DNA of 64,000 nt from Alphaproteobacteria bacterium (GTDB taxonomy: Bacteria; Pseudomonadota; Alphaproteobacteria; UBA828). Where the stretch lies: assembly GCA_965220745.1 (NCBI GenBank), contig CBDCQT010000013.1, positions 384,001-448,000 of the forward strand, read 5' to 3'. The notes beneath the pieces are model-generated. The model worked only from the letters and a program-made list of their open reading frames with translations, made no database searches and was not told the origin of the DNA. Shown here piece after piece: positions 59,099 through 63,179 of this stretch. Both the position numbers and the translations under genes were made by a program. How positions within the stretch are numbered: the first letter of the stretch is position 1; every line of letters begins with the position of its first letter.

Positions 59099-59610
59099 AT
59101 GGGCGGATATCTGATCACCGGCGGCCGGCTGCTCGACGCCACCGGCGCGTCACCGCAGGACAGTGTTTCGGTGCTGGTGGAGGGCAACCGCATCCGCAAG
59201 ATCGGCCCGGACCGGGAGGTCGCGGCCGCAGCCGAAACCCTGGGCGGTTACCGGACCATCGATGCCGCCGGCCACACCGTCATGCCGGGCATGATCGACG
59301 CCCACTGCCATATCTCCTACGGCGACATCCTCTCGTTCGAGGAGCTCGACCTCTACGCGGGCGTGGAGTACCGCACGCTGCGCGCCGCCAACAACGCGCG
59401 CAAGGTGCTGCGCGCGGGCGTTACCGCGTTCTCCGATCCTGGCTCCACATGGAACATCTCGGTGGCGGTCCGCGACGCCATCAACGCCGGCCTGATCGAG
59501 GGGCCGCGCATGGCCTCGGCCGGGCGCTACATCACCACCTTCAACGCCATCGGCTCGCCCTGGCCGTCGTGGATGGAGCACCCCAAGTCGTCGTTCGCCG
59601 TGCTCTGCAA
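59099..59610 (+). pseudogene. Amidohydrolase (prolidase-like metal-dependent hydrolase), 5' part, interrupted by the IS
   Basis: VMPGMIDAHCH, LRAGVT, GPRM. The frame runs into the IS at ...SSFAVLC. Confidence 0.9.
59603..59610 (+). repeat. 8-bp target site duplication, left copy (CTCTGCAA)
   Basis: Identical to 62283-62290 and abuts the left IR. Confidence 0.95.
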
Positions 59611-59634
59611 GGGGATTACAAAGGCTGGTTGACA
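59611..59634 (+). repeat. Left terminal inverted repeat
   Basis: GGGGATTACAAAGGCTGGTTGACA. Confidence 0.95.
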
Positions 59635-59657
59635 TTCCGGCCCGGACTCGCTAAGTT
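59629..59657 (+). promoter_or_regulatory. Candidate transposase promoter with its -35 inside IRL
   Basis: TTGACA (59629-59634)-N17-TAAGTT (59652-59657). Confidence 0.65.
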
Positions 59658-59693
59658 CTATCAACCTATCCGTATCGGAAATGGAGACAGGAC

Positions 59694-60680
59694 ATGGCCC
59701 GCAAGGCGCCCGGCAAATCTCACCGCGAGGGACTGACCATCGTCGAGTTAGTGGACATGTTCCCGACCGAAGAGGCCGCCACGACATGGTTTGAGGATAC
59801 GATCTGGCCCGACGGCCGGCATTGCCCCAAGTGTGGCTCCGAGCGCACAGGCAAGGCGAGCCATGCCAGGATGCCCTATTGGTGCACGGACTGCCGGAGC
59901 TACTTCAGCGTCCGTACGAACACCCCCATGGCCCGGTCGAACGTGCCCCTGCGCAAGTGGGCCATTGCGATTTACCTGTGCCTGACGAGCCTCAAGAGCG
60001 TCTCCAGCATGAAGCTCAAGCGTGACATCGGAGTGTCGCAGCCCACCGCGTGGTTCATGCTCCAGCGTATCCGGGAGGCTTGGGCGGAAGACGACGATGA
60101 CGAGCTCGATGGCCCGGTAGAGGTCGATGAGACCTACATGGGAGGCGAGCGCAAGAACATGTCGATCGCCCGGCGCAAGGCACTCCGCGAGGCGAACACG
60201 GGGCGTGGTTCTGTCGGCAAGACGGCCGTTGTGGGCATCAAGGACCGCGAGAGCGGGGAAGTCCGTGTCGAGGTCGTATCGAGTGTCGACGGCAAGACCT
60301 TGCAGGGTTTCGTCCGCGAGAACACAGAGGCCGGCGCCAAGGTCTATACGGACGAAGCATCGGCTTACAAGGGACTGGCGCGGGACTTTGACCATGAGGG
60401 CGTGCGCCACAGCGTCAGTCAGTACGTCCGGGGGCAAGCCCACATCAACGGCATGGAATCGTTCTGGTCAATGCTCAAGAGGGCGCATGACGGCACGTTT
60501 CACAAGATCAGTCCCAAGCACCTGCAACGCTACGTTTCGGAGTTTGCAGGCAAGCACAATATCCGGGACTCAGGAACGCTTGCGCAGATGCGGGACACTG
60601 TCGCCCGTATGGTTGGCAGGAACCTTTTCTACCGGGACTTGACCGCCGACAACGGACTGTCGAACGCGGGCCGGTCGTAA
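59694..60680 (+). CDS. IS1595-family transposase
   Basis: Zn ribbon CPKC...CTDC, HTH (SSMKLKRDIGVSQPTAW), VEVDETY, YTDE..AY, HINGMESFW, KHLQRYVSEF; GGAG RBS. Confidence 0.96.
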   Translation: MARKAPGKSHREGLTIVELVDMFPTEEAATTWFEDTIWPDGRHCPKCGSERTGKASHARMPYWCTDCRSYFSVRTNTPMARSNVPLRKWAIAIYLCLTSLKSVSSMKLKRDIGVSQPTAWFMLQRIREAWAEDDDDELDGPVEVDETYMGGERKNMSIARRKALREANTGRGSVGKTAVVGIKDRESGEVRVEVVSSVDGKTLQGFVRENTEAGAKVYTDEASAYKGLARDFDHEGVRHSVSQYVRGQAHINGMESFWSMLKRAHDGTFHKISPKHLQRYVSEFAGKHNIRDSGTLAQMRDTVARMVGRNLFYRDLTADNGLSNAGRS

Positions 60681-60776
60681 AGGTTCAACCCGGCGAAAAA
60701 GGGCTTTGGCCAGCTTTTCCGGGGTTGCTCCGACAAGGTGAACTTTCGGGTCTAGCATCGGAACGCCACGGGTCAT
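60570..60776 (-). CDS. Small hypothetical protein (68 aa) overlapping the transposase 3' end in antisense
   Basis: AAGGAG RBS 8 nt before ATG 60776; MTRGVPMLDPKVHLVGATPEKLAKALFRR... Confidence 0.55.
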   Translation of the reverse strand: MTRGVPMLDPKVHLVGATPEKLAKALFRRVEPLRPARVRQSVVGGQVPVEKVPANHTGDSVPHLRKRS

Positions 60777-60792
60777 CGATTCGACTCCTTGC

Positions 60793-60820
60793 TTGACGAA
60801 AGGAAGGAACACGGTAATTT
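60793..60820 (+). promoter_or_regulatory. Candidate promoter for the leader plus micropeptide transcript
   Basis: TTGACG-N16-TAATTT. Confidence 0.45.
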
Positions 60821-60854
60821 CGCCCAAGTGGCCGCGACGAATCGCGGTGACCCG

Positions 60855-60888
60855 AACGAAAGAGCCCCCCGCTGGAGGCGGGAGGCTC
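60855..60888 (-). terminator. Rho-independent terminator
   Basis: 11-bp stem (60862-60872 / 60878-60888), 5-nt loop, U-rich tail on the minus strand. Confidence 0.7.
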
Positions 60889-60942
60889 GATCAAAAGGGT
60901 CTGGTGTTGACCTGGAGAGGCGCACCAAACGGGCGTCAGAAC
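60855..60942 (-). ncRNA. Candidate antisense small RNA of about 85-90 nt
   Basis: Promoter TTGACA (60976-60971)-N16-TAGGAT (60954-60949); hairpin UUUGGUG/CACCAGA with a CUCC loop; terminator GAGCCUCCCGC-CUCCA-GCGGGGGGCUC-UUUCGUU. The stem irregularities are G-U wobbles only on the minus strand. Confidence 0.6.
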
Positions 60943-61006
60943 GCGGGTATCCTACCGACTCCCGCGAGCCTGTCAAGTGCGCTCTCCGAACGAAAGGAGA
61001 GCCAAC

Positions 61007-61081
61007 ATGGCTATCCCCTATCCTGTTCCAAAACAACCGAAACCTCCACATGTCCCGTGGCCGCCAGAGCCATGGTGTTAG
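61007..61081 (+). CDS. Candidate 24-aa proline-rich micropeptide MAIPYPVPKQPKPPHVPWPPEPWC
   Basis: AAAGGAGAG RBS shortly before ATG 61007, sequestered in a GCTCTCC/GGAGAGC hairpin; followed by a strong hairpin at 61091-61121. Too short for the ORF track. Confidence 0.55.
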   Translation: MAIPYPVPKQPKPPHVPWPPEPWC

Positions 61082-61089
61082 TCGATCTT

Positions 61090-61130
61090 GCCCCCGGTGG
61101 GTCTGCATGACTCGCCGGGGGGGGGGGGGC
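61090..61130. terminator. GC-rich hairpin with a G13 run between convergent cargo ORFs
   Basis: CCCCCGGTGGGTC-TGCAT-GACTCGCCGGGGG; G run at 61117-61129. Confidence 0.55.
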
Positions 61131-61360
61131 TACCAAGCTTTGGTGCTTATGGTGGGAGACGTAGAGCGCTCTTCAGGCCAAGAGGCGGTCACAGTCTCTT
61201 GGTCTGTATCCACGTTCTCACGGACGAGCTCGCTTCCGTCCGGGAAACGATACGTAAGGGTCTTTGTGACATACTCTGCCTTGCGGGCAACGCCAAGCCA
61301 GAACAGCACGCCGCGCGCGCCGTTCGCGACCCTCAGTTGCAATCGCTCGGCAATGCTCAC
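61130..61360 (-). CDS. Hypothetical cargo protein (76 aa)
   Basis: GTG start; TLTYRFPDGSELV resembles TTTYREQPDGSRIV in the 61898-62230 ORF. Confidence 0.5.
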   Translation of the reverse strand: MSIAERLQLRVANGARGVLFWLGVARKAEYVTKTLTYRFPDGSELVRENVDTDQETVTASWPEERSTSPTISTKAW

Positions 61361-61361
61361 G

Positions 61362-61443
61362 ATCCATCAACCTATCCGTATCGAATCCATCAACCTATCC
61401 GTATCGAAAAAGCTATCCGTATCGAAAAAGCTATCCGTATCGA
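61362..61443 (+). repeat. Four-copy tandem array with core CTATCCGTATCGA (2 x 23 bp plus 2 x 18 bp)
   Basis: ATCCATCAACCTATCCGTATCGA at 61362-61384 and 61385-61407; AAAAGCTATCCGTATCGA at 61408-61425 and 61426-61443. ATCAACCTATCCGTATCG also occurs at 59660-59677. Confidence 0.95.
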
Positions 61444-61579
61444 ATTGTTGCACAGATACTCCGACAAGGCTACCCTCCTTCCCTGCGTGCGGTTCGGCGA
61501 GGGCGGGCAGGAGCGCCCCACGCCTTGATTACCGGGCGCTCCAGGCGGGGTGCTGTCCCTGTACACGGCACCCCGCCGT

Positions 61580-61879
61580 TCATTCCTTGTCGGTGCCTGT
61601 TCCGGCCGCGTGCATTCTGCCGGCAATGCGGACCGGCGTGGGAGAGACGACCTCCGCCCCGCCGTCTATGTGGATGTGGAACACTCCGCCTGGGGCGCGA
61701 AAGTCCTGATAGGTTGCGCCAGGCGCCAAGTTGATTTGTACCTGCGGCGGCGACTCTCGTTGCTCCCGCAGCTCGGCAAGCTCTTTCTCCAATTGGGCAA
61801 TTCGCTTGGGCGCGGTAAGCATAGCGCTCACCCTTCCCCACCCAACGCGGAGCAACTCGACAGAAAACCACGATTCCAT
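61580..61879 (-). CDS. Hypothetical cargo protein (99 aa) with a short coiled coil and conserved C-terminal motif
   Basis: RIAQLEKELAELREQ; ends PVRIAGRMHAAGTGTDKE. Followed by hairpin GGCGGGGTGCTGT/ACGGCACCCCGCC at about 61544-61577. Confidence 0.65.
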   Translation of the reverse strand: MESWFSVELLRVGWGRVSAMLTAPKRIAQLEKELAELREQRESPPQVQINLAPGATYQDFRAPGGVFHIHIDGGAEVVSPTPVRIAGRMHAAGTGTDKE

Positions 61880-61897
61880 CCACGCATCATACTCTTC

Positions 61898-62230
61898 CTA
61901 CTCCTTGTCAGAAACCTTGTCAGTACCCGTGCCGGTCACATGCATTCTGCCGGCAAGACGCATAGGCTTGGCGAGCGTGGTCTGAGTGACGATCCGCGAG
62001 CCGTCCGGTTGCTCCCGGTAGGTGGTCGTGTCGTTCAAGCGGACCTCGGGGCCGAGGACCGACTTGGGTTTTCTCTTGCGGTCTATCCAGACACATACGC
62101 CCATGCCCACAAGGGCCAAGACGATGACGGCTATCCATATCCCTACGGACCAATGGGCCGTGAAGATATCCATCATTGCGCCGGCCCCCAGATCGAGGGC
62201 GAAAAAGCAGACTGCGAAATACCTAGCCAT
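61898..62230 (-). CDS. Hypothetical membrane cargo protein (110 aa), probably leaderless, with conserved C-terminal motif
   Basis: Hydrophobic N-terminal half then RKRKPK; ends PMRLAGRMHVTGTGTDKVSDKE. ATG lies 6 nt after the predicted -10 box. Confidence 0.65.
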   Translation of the reverse strand: MARYFAVCFFALDLGAGAMMDIFTAHWSVGIWIAVIVLALVGMGVCVWIDRKRKPKSVLGPEVRLNDTTTYREQPDGSRIVTQTTLAKPMRLAGRMHVTGTGTDKVSDKE

Positions 62231-62236
62231 TCTGCG

Positions 62237-62264
62237 ATCATATCGATTCCCCCGGTCGTGTCAA
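62237..62264 (-). promoter_or_regulatory. Candidate inward-facing promoter with its -35 inside IRR
   Basis: TTGACA (62264-62259)-N16-TATGAT (62242-62237). Confidence 0.65.
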
Positions 62265-62282
62265 CTACTCTTTGTAATCCCC
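62259..62282 (-). repeat. Right terminal inverted repeat
   Basis: TGTCAACTACTCTTTGTAATCCCC. Confidence 0.95.
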
Positions 62283-63179
62283 CTCTGCAACACGCGCGAG
62301 GAGATGGTCACGGAGGCGCGCCGCGAGATCAAGGACGGCGTCGACATCGTGAAGGTGGCCGGCGACGGCGACGTGCTCACCGGCGAGGCGGAGCTTGCCG
62401 GCAGCATCGGGCTCGACGACCTGCGCGCCATCGCCGAAGTCACCCACCGTCTCGGTAAGGTCTGCACCATCCACGCGCGCTCGGGCCGCGCGGCGGCCGA
62501 TGCCATCCGCGCCGGCTTCGACTGGATCATCCACGGCTCCTACATGTCCGACAACGATCTTGACGTGCTCTTCCGCAACCCGACGCCGCTGATCCCGACC
62601 TTCTCGCTGCTGGCGAACACCCTCGAATGGGGCCCGGACCTCGGCTGCTCGGGCTTCATCCTCGACGCCTACAAGGATGAGGTCGAGCGCCTTGCCAGCG
62701 TCGTCTCGCGAGCCCATGCCGAGGGAATCACTATCATCGCCGGCACCGACAGCGGCCAGGGCTCGGTGCCCTACGGCGAATGGCACGCGCGCGAGATGGA
62801 GCACCTGATGACCTATGGCGGCCTGAGCGCGGTGGAGGCGATCCGCGCGGGTACCGCTAACGCGGCGCTGACGCTCGGCATGGAGGACGAGATCGGTACC
62901 TTGGAGGAAGGCAAGCTCGCCGACATTCTGGTGGTGGATGGCGACCCGCTCGCCGATATCGCCGTGCTGCAGGACCGGGAGCGCCTCGCGGTCGTGATGA
63001 AGGACGGCGCAGTGGTCGACACAGAGGCGCCGATCCCCGAGCCCGCGCGCTACAACTGGGAAAAGCCCATGCTCTACTGGGAGGATCCGCGGATGCCGAC
63101 CCAGAGCTTCGTGCGCGAGCACGCGACCAGCAAGCCGCGCTGGATGCAGCAGGAACGCCGTCTCGACGCAGCGGAGTAG
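62283..63179 (+). pseudogene. Amidohydrolase, 3' part (begins with the right TSD copy)
   Basis: LCNTREEMV...VDIVKV, TIHA, WIIHGS, AGTDSG, GKLADILVVDGDPL. Removing the IS plus one TSD restores one 1401-nt frame (466 aa). Confidence 0.9.

Follow-up and report, generated by a model that had tools for sequence, protein, structure and literature searches.

A four-copy direct-repeat array in the cargo of an IS1595-family element was at first thought to reproduce the 5' leader of the transposase (tnp) transcript. Sequence comparison now indicates that the array is not built from the transposase leader, but is part of a rare module in which a small protein gene is associated with direct repeats. The element lies in a window of 64,000 nt, which is the whole stretch of alphaproteobacterial DNA that we analysed. 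We consider it quite possible, if still tentative, that the array provides operator-like sites for small76, the predicted dimeric protein of the module, that the copy found in the leader is such a site captured at the tnp start, and that an isolated copy at 62131 is a third target. Judged by its sequence, the carrier is an ordinary IS1595 transporter IS (tIS), and what is new is the pairing of a rare, unnamed small protein with an array.

The element spans 2,672 bp (59611-62282). Its insertion splits an amidohydrolase gene, the two halves of which match positions 1-89 and 99-345 of the Amidohydro_1 profile, and its G+C content is 0.55-0.64, as against 0.67-0.69 for the flanks. It shows the attributes of a tIS: an IS1595-type DDE transposase with an N-terminal zinc ribbon, terminal inverted repeats between 8-bp direct target duplications, and three minus-strand ORFs together with the array between tnp and the right inverted repeat. 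The transposase is recognized by Pfam (DDE_Tnp_IS1595, PF12762, 2.4e-42; Zn_ribbon_IS1595, PF12760, 3.5e-08) and by NCBIfam (transpos_IS1595, NF033547, 3.5e-58, with 197 bits vs a cut-off of 75). The features to which we refer below are the following.

59603-59610, no strand: left copy of the target-site duplication, CTCTGCAA, 8 bp; the same 8 nt stand at 62283-62290
59611-59634, plus strand: left inverted repeat (IRL), GGGGATTACAAAGGCTGGTTGACA, 24 nt, 88% complementary to 62259-62282
59629-59657, plus strand: predicted tnp promoter, TTGACA at 59629-59634, 17-nt spacer, TAAGTT at 59652-59657, a layout common to IS1595 left ends
59656-59678, plus strand: leader copy of the repeat unit, with the 18-mer at 59660-59677 and the core at 59666-59677
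59694-60680, plus strand: IS1595-family transposase, 328 aa
60855-60976, minus strand: candidate small RNA gene, with promoter-like TTGACA-16-TAGGAT (60976-60949) and terminator-like hairpin (60888-60862)
61130-61360, minus strand: small76, 76 aa, GTG start 1 nt from the array
61362-61443, plus strand: four-copy direct-repeat array, cores at 61372, 61395, 61413 and 61431, spacing 23, 18 and 18
61390-61480, minus strand: short frame, AAGGAGG (61480-61474) plus TTG (61467), 25 codons across three repeat units, stop at 61390
61509-61578, minus strand: two consecutive GC-rich hairpins 3' of orfB99, 87% identical to C3:222002-222070
61580-61879, minus strand: orfB99, its C-terminus paralogous to that of orfA110
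61898-62230, minus strand: orfA110, predicted membrane protein, with a homologue in the related element L057 (53% over 78 aa)
62131-62141, plus strand: sixth motif copy, CTATCCATATC, within orfA110, some 90 nt into the gene and into the cargo operon
62237-62264, minus strand: predicted cargo promoter TTGACA-16-TATGAT (11/12 matches), within the right inverted repeat and facing inward
62259-62282, minus strand: right inverted repeat (IRR), pairs with IRL
62283-62290, no strand: right copy of the target-site duplication, CTCTGCAA, 8 bp

The cargo genes all read on the minus strand (orfA110, orfB99 and small76), in agreement with the original prediction, and the order of the cargo is orfA110, orfB99, the two hairpins, the array and small76. 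The predicted cargo promoter ends 6 nt ahead of the orfA110 ATG, which is a leaderless layout. The cargo ORFs match no family in Pfam, NCBIfam or PHROGs, and the homologue in L057 is the one homologue that was found for orfA110. OrfA110 and orfB99 share the C-terminal motif R(L/I)AGRMH(V/A)(T/A)GTGTDK, and the DNA of the two ends (61585-61641 and 61915-61971) is 77% identical over 57 nt. The hairpins at 61509-61578 have a counterpart in a third IS1595 element of the same genome (C3:219932-222070), where they close the cargo operon at its 3' end; the cargo of that element is different and on the plus strand, and one of its ORFs is DUF1232-like by eye.

The 18-mer ATCAACCTATCCGTATCG is found exactly at 59660-59677, 61366-61383 and 61389-61406, and with three mismatches at 61407-61424 and 61425-61442; shuffling leads to an expectation of 0.01 matches, and 0/100 shuffles reach five. 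Five exact copies of its 12-mer core, CTATCCGTATCG, are present in the window (59666, 61372, 61395, 61413 and 61431), a number again attained in 0/100 shuffles (mean 0.17). The array was thus correctly described beforehand, both in coordinates and in sequence, as two 18-mers (61366-61406) followed by two further cores up to 61443. Tandem Repeats Finder (TRF) resolves it into 61362-61408 (period 23, 2.0 copies, 100%) and 61395-61444 (period 18, 2.8 copies, 100%), and the leader copy (59656-59678) is identical to the 23-bp array unit at 20/23 positions (87%). The 11-mer of the sixth copy, CTATCCATATC at 62131-62141, has no other exact occurrence in the 4.82 Mb of the genome, and its reversed control has 0. 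All six motif copies of the element have the same strand orientation. As for the copy number in reads, both 23-bp units are present without differences in Logan contigs (three runs of one sample), whereas the contigs end at 61415-61424, inside the 18-bp units, where a 31-mer repeats; the number of 18-bp units is therefore taken from the assembly only. Pieces of the element are also present at 100% identity in a run from another study. The sequencing runs listed for the organism include none of RNA. A CRISPR array was rejected, as had been anticipated, since the units adjoin one another, with 5-11 nt of filler that is itself repeated, and lack unique spacers. The short frame that starts at the TTG at 61467 behind AAGGAGG does yield the peptide that had been foreseen; it is probably fortuitous, and the C5 and L078 arrays described below have no counterpart of it.

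The leader copy sits between the −10 box TAAGTT (59652-59657) and GGAGAC/ATG (59683/59694), exactly where the original prediction had placed its 18-mer. The tnp promoter was not called by a stricter promoter scan. From the positions of the predicted −35 and −10 boxes, tnp would start near 59664, so that the 23-nt copy would span about −8 to +15, which, with a start deduced from the consensus, is a typical position for a repressor site. We compared this region with 24 other IS1595 left ends, four from the same genome and 20 from relatives whose transposases are 59-79% identical. The TTGAC-17 nt-TATATT layout, beginning inside the left repeat, is found in 19 of them. In the window element, the −10 box lies 36 nt from the ATG. 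For the 13 rows that have the ATG as anchor, this distance is 23-26 nt; the leader of the window element is thus about 10 nt longer than that of its relatives, and the extra sequence is the motif. The core is absent from all 24 left ends when fewer than four mismatches are allowed, neither small76 nor the array is present in any of the 20 related loci fetched, and the leader of a second array-bearing element (on contig C5) has no copy of the core, although that element bears an array. The leader copy hence appears to be a derived feature, peculiar to the window element. The expectation that internal repeats would co-vary with the tnp leader of their own element, and that leader-matching internal copies would be general among related elements, is contradicted by the same left ends and by C5. 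The leader of the third IS1595 element, on contig C3, reads CATCAACCCCTATCTTATAG and is loosely similar to the 18-mer.

Of the 14 exact copies of the 12-mer in the genome, five lie in the window element and nine in the array of the second IS1595 element (C5:22953-25475). This element has its own inverted repeats and 8-bp duplication (CGTTGTTC), its transposase is 52% identical to that of the window, and it encodes a small76 homologue that is 54% identical over 63 residues. Its array consists of 10 units with a 17-bp period and a core identical to that of the window, one outer copy carrying a mismatch; it lies upstream of a promoter-like TTGACA-17-CATAAT that would serve the orf84-small78 operon, its core reads in the sense direction, and 8 nt separate its end from the right inverted repeat. 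The same element contains a tRNA-like gene (C5:24291-24389, equal to L005:2249-2347 on the minus strand), which scores 60.9 bits over the full Rfam tRNA model, has a 28-nt extra arm and the anticodon loop CUUGGAA, and was not called by ARAGORN.

The third locus is a metagenome contig, L078 (the same as L077, at 99.6% identity), which encodes a member of the small76 family. At about 660 bp from the small gene, it has five units of about 34 bp with AACCTATCCATATC(G/A)AAAA, and its core is CTATCCATATC, the same variant as the sixth copy of the window. No IS1595 transposase lies within 5 kb. The passenger module therefore exists independently of the transposase, which contradicts the idea that the array reproduces the tnp leader, and the contig, which is unrelated to the two elements, is probably mobile. 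A GC-rich array of 8-nt-based units (CGGCAGCC / CGGCAACTCGCGAGCC) occupies L078:5515-5712, where it separates the motif array from the small gene. The three loci have in common the small gene and the arrays, and nothing else. Arrays are found at all three loci with small76 homologues that are at least 45% identical; the link between protein and array is drawn from these loci, of which two belong to the same genome. In the congeneric genome G003, no array lies within 6 kb of a more distant homologue, which is 32% identical and contains an internal TGA. The array and the small gene are arranged differently, in order and in orientation, in each of the three loci: in the window, the array abuts the small76 start codon and the core is antisense to small76, in C5 it precedes the operon promoter, and in L078 it is downstream of the small gene, between convergent genes.

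These comparisons also bear on what the copies do. One alternative is that the array serves the passenger module only, or is a neutral minisatellite, and that the leader copy arose by chance, through repair or gene conversion, and regulates nothing. Slippage alone predicts the identity of tandem units, the leader copy is present in one of the two array-bearing IS1595 elements and in 0/24 other left ends, and the leaders of the relatives contain a GT(G/C)TCGG stretch that could have seeded a conversion patch. However, the copy was placed between the −10 box and the ribosome-binding site with neither damaged, it keeps its 20/23 identity to the 23-bp unit, and a second isolated copy, unique genome-wide, stands in the cargo operon. 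Moreover, the core has been kept at loci where protein identity is down to 45-54%, which argues against a neutral array. We regard an inert leader copy as unlikely.

It has also to be considered whether the sites are accessory, subterminal binding sites of the transposase. The C5 array ends next to the right inverted repeat, as noted above, and the window leader copy is about 45 nt inside the left one. Nevertheless, the motif is unlike the inverted repeats of either element; the core is identical while the two transposases are 52% identical and the ends differ; the array occurs without a transposase in L078 and is missing from the 20 related loci; and in the window some 820 nt separate the array from the right end of the element. 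Such a role is, in our opinion, highly improbable.

The protein that accompanies the arrays has few relatives. Small76 belongs to no Pfam, NCBIfam or PHROG family, and a word-based search retrieved no homologue. A full HMMER scan of 1.84 billion representatives, with a profile built from two small proteins (small76 and its C5 homologue), gave 10 proteins at E <= 0.001. Five of these, with 65-102 aa, are short relatives that match over their full length, and the remaining five are proteins of 592-1,987 aa that align in short stretches. Homologues are present in two of 49 genomes of the order and one of 401 genomes of the class, and none was found in plasmids, phages or viral contigs. The N-terminus M-x-x-A-E-R-L is conserved across the family, which designates the GTG at 61360 as the true start; as a consequence, the array ends one base ahead of small76. 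The AlphaFold2 model, obtained with a seven-row alignment, has a pLDDT of 84 and a pTM of 0.52, and consists of two helices followed by three strands (H3-12, H18-27, E34-38, E44-48, E56-60). Comparison with solved folds, DNA-binding folds among them, gave no match (Foldseek E-value 0.36 at best, VIA-align Z 2.6 at best), and the ESM Atlas returned hypothetical clusters only. A symmetric homodimer was predicted with an ipSAE of 0.53, vs 0.07 for the best of three controls. That value is reached by 20 of 30 solved one-chain pairs and by one of 23 solved single chains, counts that apply only roughly here because the seven-row alignment was built by us. The dimer runs agreed on at least 98% of the contacts, with a partner pLDDT of at least 72, and in the predicted interface the first strand pairs with itself in an antiparallel manner, residue 34 facing residue 34. 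Small76 is therefore predicted to self-associate, and the model is silent on DNA binding. Its first 34 residues include six basic and two acidic ones, and the charge of the whole protein is about neutral.

We then asked how such a module could act on its carrier. The core is conserved while the proteins are 45-54% identical, its orientation and position are free, and it is confined to the elements; all this points to a DNA site read by a protein that the module encodes. As small76 is the only candidate shared by the loci, we propose it as the reader of the motif. The array would be a cluster of protein-binding sites in direct repeat, operator- or iteron-like, and small76 together with repeats of the core AACCTATCC(G/A)TATCGAA forms the passenger module, carried as cargo by a tIS of the IS1595 family. 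The binder would be small76 itself, as a dimer, and we infer that its binding represses. In the window element only, the leader has changed by about 10 nt, which has brought a copy of the site onto the tnp promoter. A protein bound there, from just past the −10 box to about +15, would block initiation or promoter escape. The same factor would see three places, namely tnp, the cargo operon through its early copy, and the small76 gene itself. The four-copy array would be an operator for autoregulation and, as a sink, would also draw the factor away from the single tnp site, and the 10-copy C5 array may act in trans on the same factor. Against this reading, the small76 model matches no DNA-binding fold and the protein is about neutral in charge, a symmetric dimer would more naturally read a palindrome than a direct repeat, and the C5 element works without a site in its own tnp leader. 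In addition, the L078 array lies between convergent genes and not at a promoter, so that the word operator is not apt for every instance. A more elaborate version can be drawn, in which a small76 dimer of new fold reads one 11-12-nt site at the tnp start, in the early cargo operon and four times before its own gene, transposition being conditional on the cargo, the C5 array acting as a sponge that couples two unrelated transposons, and the minus-strand transcript of the array perhaps adding an antisense layer. We find this version doubtful.

The antisense idea has to be weighed on its own. In that case, a minus-strand transcript of the array, either the small76 5' untranslated region or read-through from the cargo operon, would pair with the tnp mRNA; its four copies of CGAUACGGAUAG would anneal to the first 15 nt or so, lowering translation or stability. 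The array adjoins the small76 GTG with 1 nt between them, which implies that the small76 promoter lies in the array or upstream of it and that part of the array should be transcribed; transcription of the array on the minus strand is thus probable. All six copies of the element are antisense to the tnp leader on cargo transcripts, two units are perfectly complementary to it over 18 nt, and the copy at 62131 pairs with one G-U wobble. Against this, the predicted duplex between leader and array RNA does not stand apart from those of shuffled arrays: it reaches −46.5, vs a mean of −38.3 (sd 4.2), a difference of only about 2 sd, and the most stable shuffle reaches −50.4. No sigma-70-like promoter was found on the minus strand between 61444 and 61510. 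The match ends at 59678, 5 nt short of GGAGAC, leaving the ribosome-binding site and the start codon uncovered, and a tnp mRNA starting near 59664 would have no more than its first 15 nt or so covered. The array of C5 is opposite in orientation to the small-gene operon and upstream of its promoter, and that of L078 is downstream of the gene, on a locus that has no IS1595 transposase; given these arrangements, an RNA role cannot explain the conservation of the motif. The absence of the motif from the 24 other left ends counts in the same direction. The variable orientation and position of the array in the three loci suit a DNA site better than an RNA, and control by multivalent antisense pairing seems to us an unlikely explanation. 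The original prediction had offered both possibilities, and its operator- or iteron-like option is the one that fits better (position at the tnp start, conservation at the DNA level, free orientation), except that the Rep initiator that an iteron would call for is absent.

A further question is whether the DNA site belongs to small76 or to the host. The copies might bind a host factor (DnaA-like, IHF-like or another nucleoid protein), small76 being a bystander. By eye, CTATCCATA and CTATCCGTA share 7/9 and 6/9 positions with TTATCCACA, which we take to be the DnaA-box consensus, and the TATCAA of the leader resembles what is presumably the IHF core. However, one-mismatch cores outside the arrays number 10 genome-wide, vs nine in the reversed control, and exact sites are confined to the two elements, so that no host regulon is visible. 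The motif also accompanies small76 into an unrelated metagenome organism, and the periods of 17, 18, 23 and about 34 bp keep no helical phase. A host binder is accordingly improbable, and small76 remains the reader that we favour.

Scans beyond this genome gave few candidates. Two exact cores 4-12 nt apart were found at nine loci in 185,579 species genomes. We rejected seven because they appear by eye to be coding repeats of the Asp/Ser/Thr type, with periods of 6, 12 or 21 nt, and the two others (L016 and L019) as two-copy non-coding repeats beside unrelated genes. Three scans of viral contigs yielded nine, six and seven loci, which are single sites or unrelated repeats and were set aside. 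No small76-family protein or IS1595 transposase was found at 31 scan loci at E <= 1e-3. When 400 other genomes of the class were scanned with the pattern, two matched, one through a coding-type repeat and the other being G286. Two related phages carry 22-bp direct repeats, GGCTATCCGTATCCAGCCCATT, that include most of the core (viral contigs L096:8789-8821 and L097:3622-3654); neither contig has a small76 homologue, and these repeats are probably unrelated to the module.

Several known systems resemble parts of this arrangement. With the other tIS of the IS1595 family, the element shares the zinc-ribbon DDE transposase, the short inverted repeats, the 8-bp duplication and the passenger genes inside. 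According to the TnCentral preprint (10.1101/2021.05.26.445724), tIS have so far been restricted to the IS1595 and IS66 families. In the accessible portions of the literature, we found nothing on the regulation of IS1595 transposases or on their control by passenger genes. Nor did we find, in those portions, any passenger-borne array or passenger-linked site in an IS1595 tnp promoter. The article of Siguier et al. from 2009 is said to be the founding paper of the family.

Arrays of repeated operators read by small dimeric proteins are familiar from omega of pSM19035, ParG of TP228 and ParR of R1. The module resembles them in the combination of a small protein, predicted to dimerize, with 4-10 nearby short direct repeats of variable number and spacing, in the position of the array at or beside promoters in two of the three loci, and in the use of one site at several transcription units of one element. 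It differs from them in that the small76 model runs helix-helix-strand-strand-strand and is not a ribbon-helix-helix (a strand, then two helices), that a ParA- or ParM-type partner is absent, and that the repeat measures 11-12 nt, vs 4-7 nt or 10-11 nt. Because the model failed the ribbon-helix-helix test and there is no partition ATPase, we did not file the module with the ribbon-helix-helix or type Ib centromere-binding proteins. In IS10/Tn10, RNA-OUT is reportedly an antisense RNA made from the opposite strand of the same DNA and covering the tnp start codon. In both cases the transposon encodes a sequence complementary to the 5' end of the tnp mRNA; in the present element, however, the copies stand in tandem 1.7 kb away, their complementarity ends before the ribosome-binding site, and their module is found also without a transposase. 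Plasmid iterons are likewise tandem direct repeats of 17-23 bp with the same core and different copy numbers, whereas here the repeats lie in a chromosomal transposon that has no Rep-type initiator. An iteron origin was rejected on the grounds that no cargo ORF matches Pfam, NCBIfam or PHROGs and that there is no adjacent Rep gene. In type III toxin-antitoxin systems of the ToxIN type, repeats stand upstream of the toxin gene and are transcribed in the same direction, and the window also has tandem repeats directly upstream of a small gene. This kinship was rejected because the repeats of C5 have the reverse orientation, the array of L078 is downstream, and small76 matches no solved fold.

So far, tIS have been treated as insertion sequences that merely carry genes. 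If our proposal is right, a passenger would control the transposase of its carrier through one short captured site, and two different elements of one genome would share a regulatory currency. If, on the other hand, the leader copy is inert, the window element amounts to no more than a tIS that carries an unusual minisatellite. In either case, the pairing itself is found on transposons as well as on the unrelated metagenome contig.

Some minor features lie between tnp and small76 or overlap their ends. The candidate small RNA, 3' of tnp, has a predicted transcript of about 90 nt that ends in an 11-bp GC hairpin and a U-rich tail. The fold of 60945-60855 has an energy of −43.4 kcal/mol (z −4.66), and 0/200 shuffles are equally stable; a search of Rfam with 60855-60976 gave no match, and the region is 74% identical to L065:3430-3588, from another IS1595 element. 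A 24-codon proline-rich frame (MAIPYPVPKQPKPPHVPWPPEPWC) stands behind AAAGGAGAG on the plus strand (61008-61082). Beyond small76, close to its 3' end, there is a short hairpin and then a stretch of about 13-14 G (61116-61130), which could be prone to slippage or be a weak point of the assembly. Finally, a minus-strand frame (MTRGVPMLDPKVHLVGATPEKLAKALFRR...) overlaps the 3' end of tnp (60570-60827); its DNA is conserved in the related element L057, and a similar TPENVARAIM motif is found in a 54-aa ORF of the C5 element.
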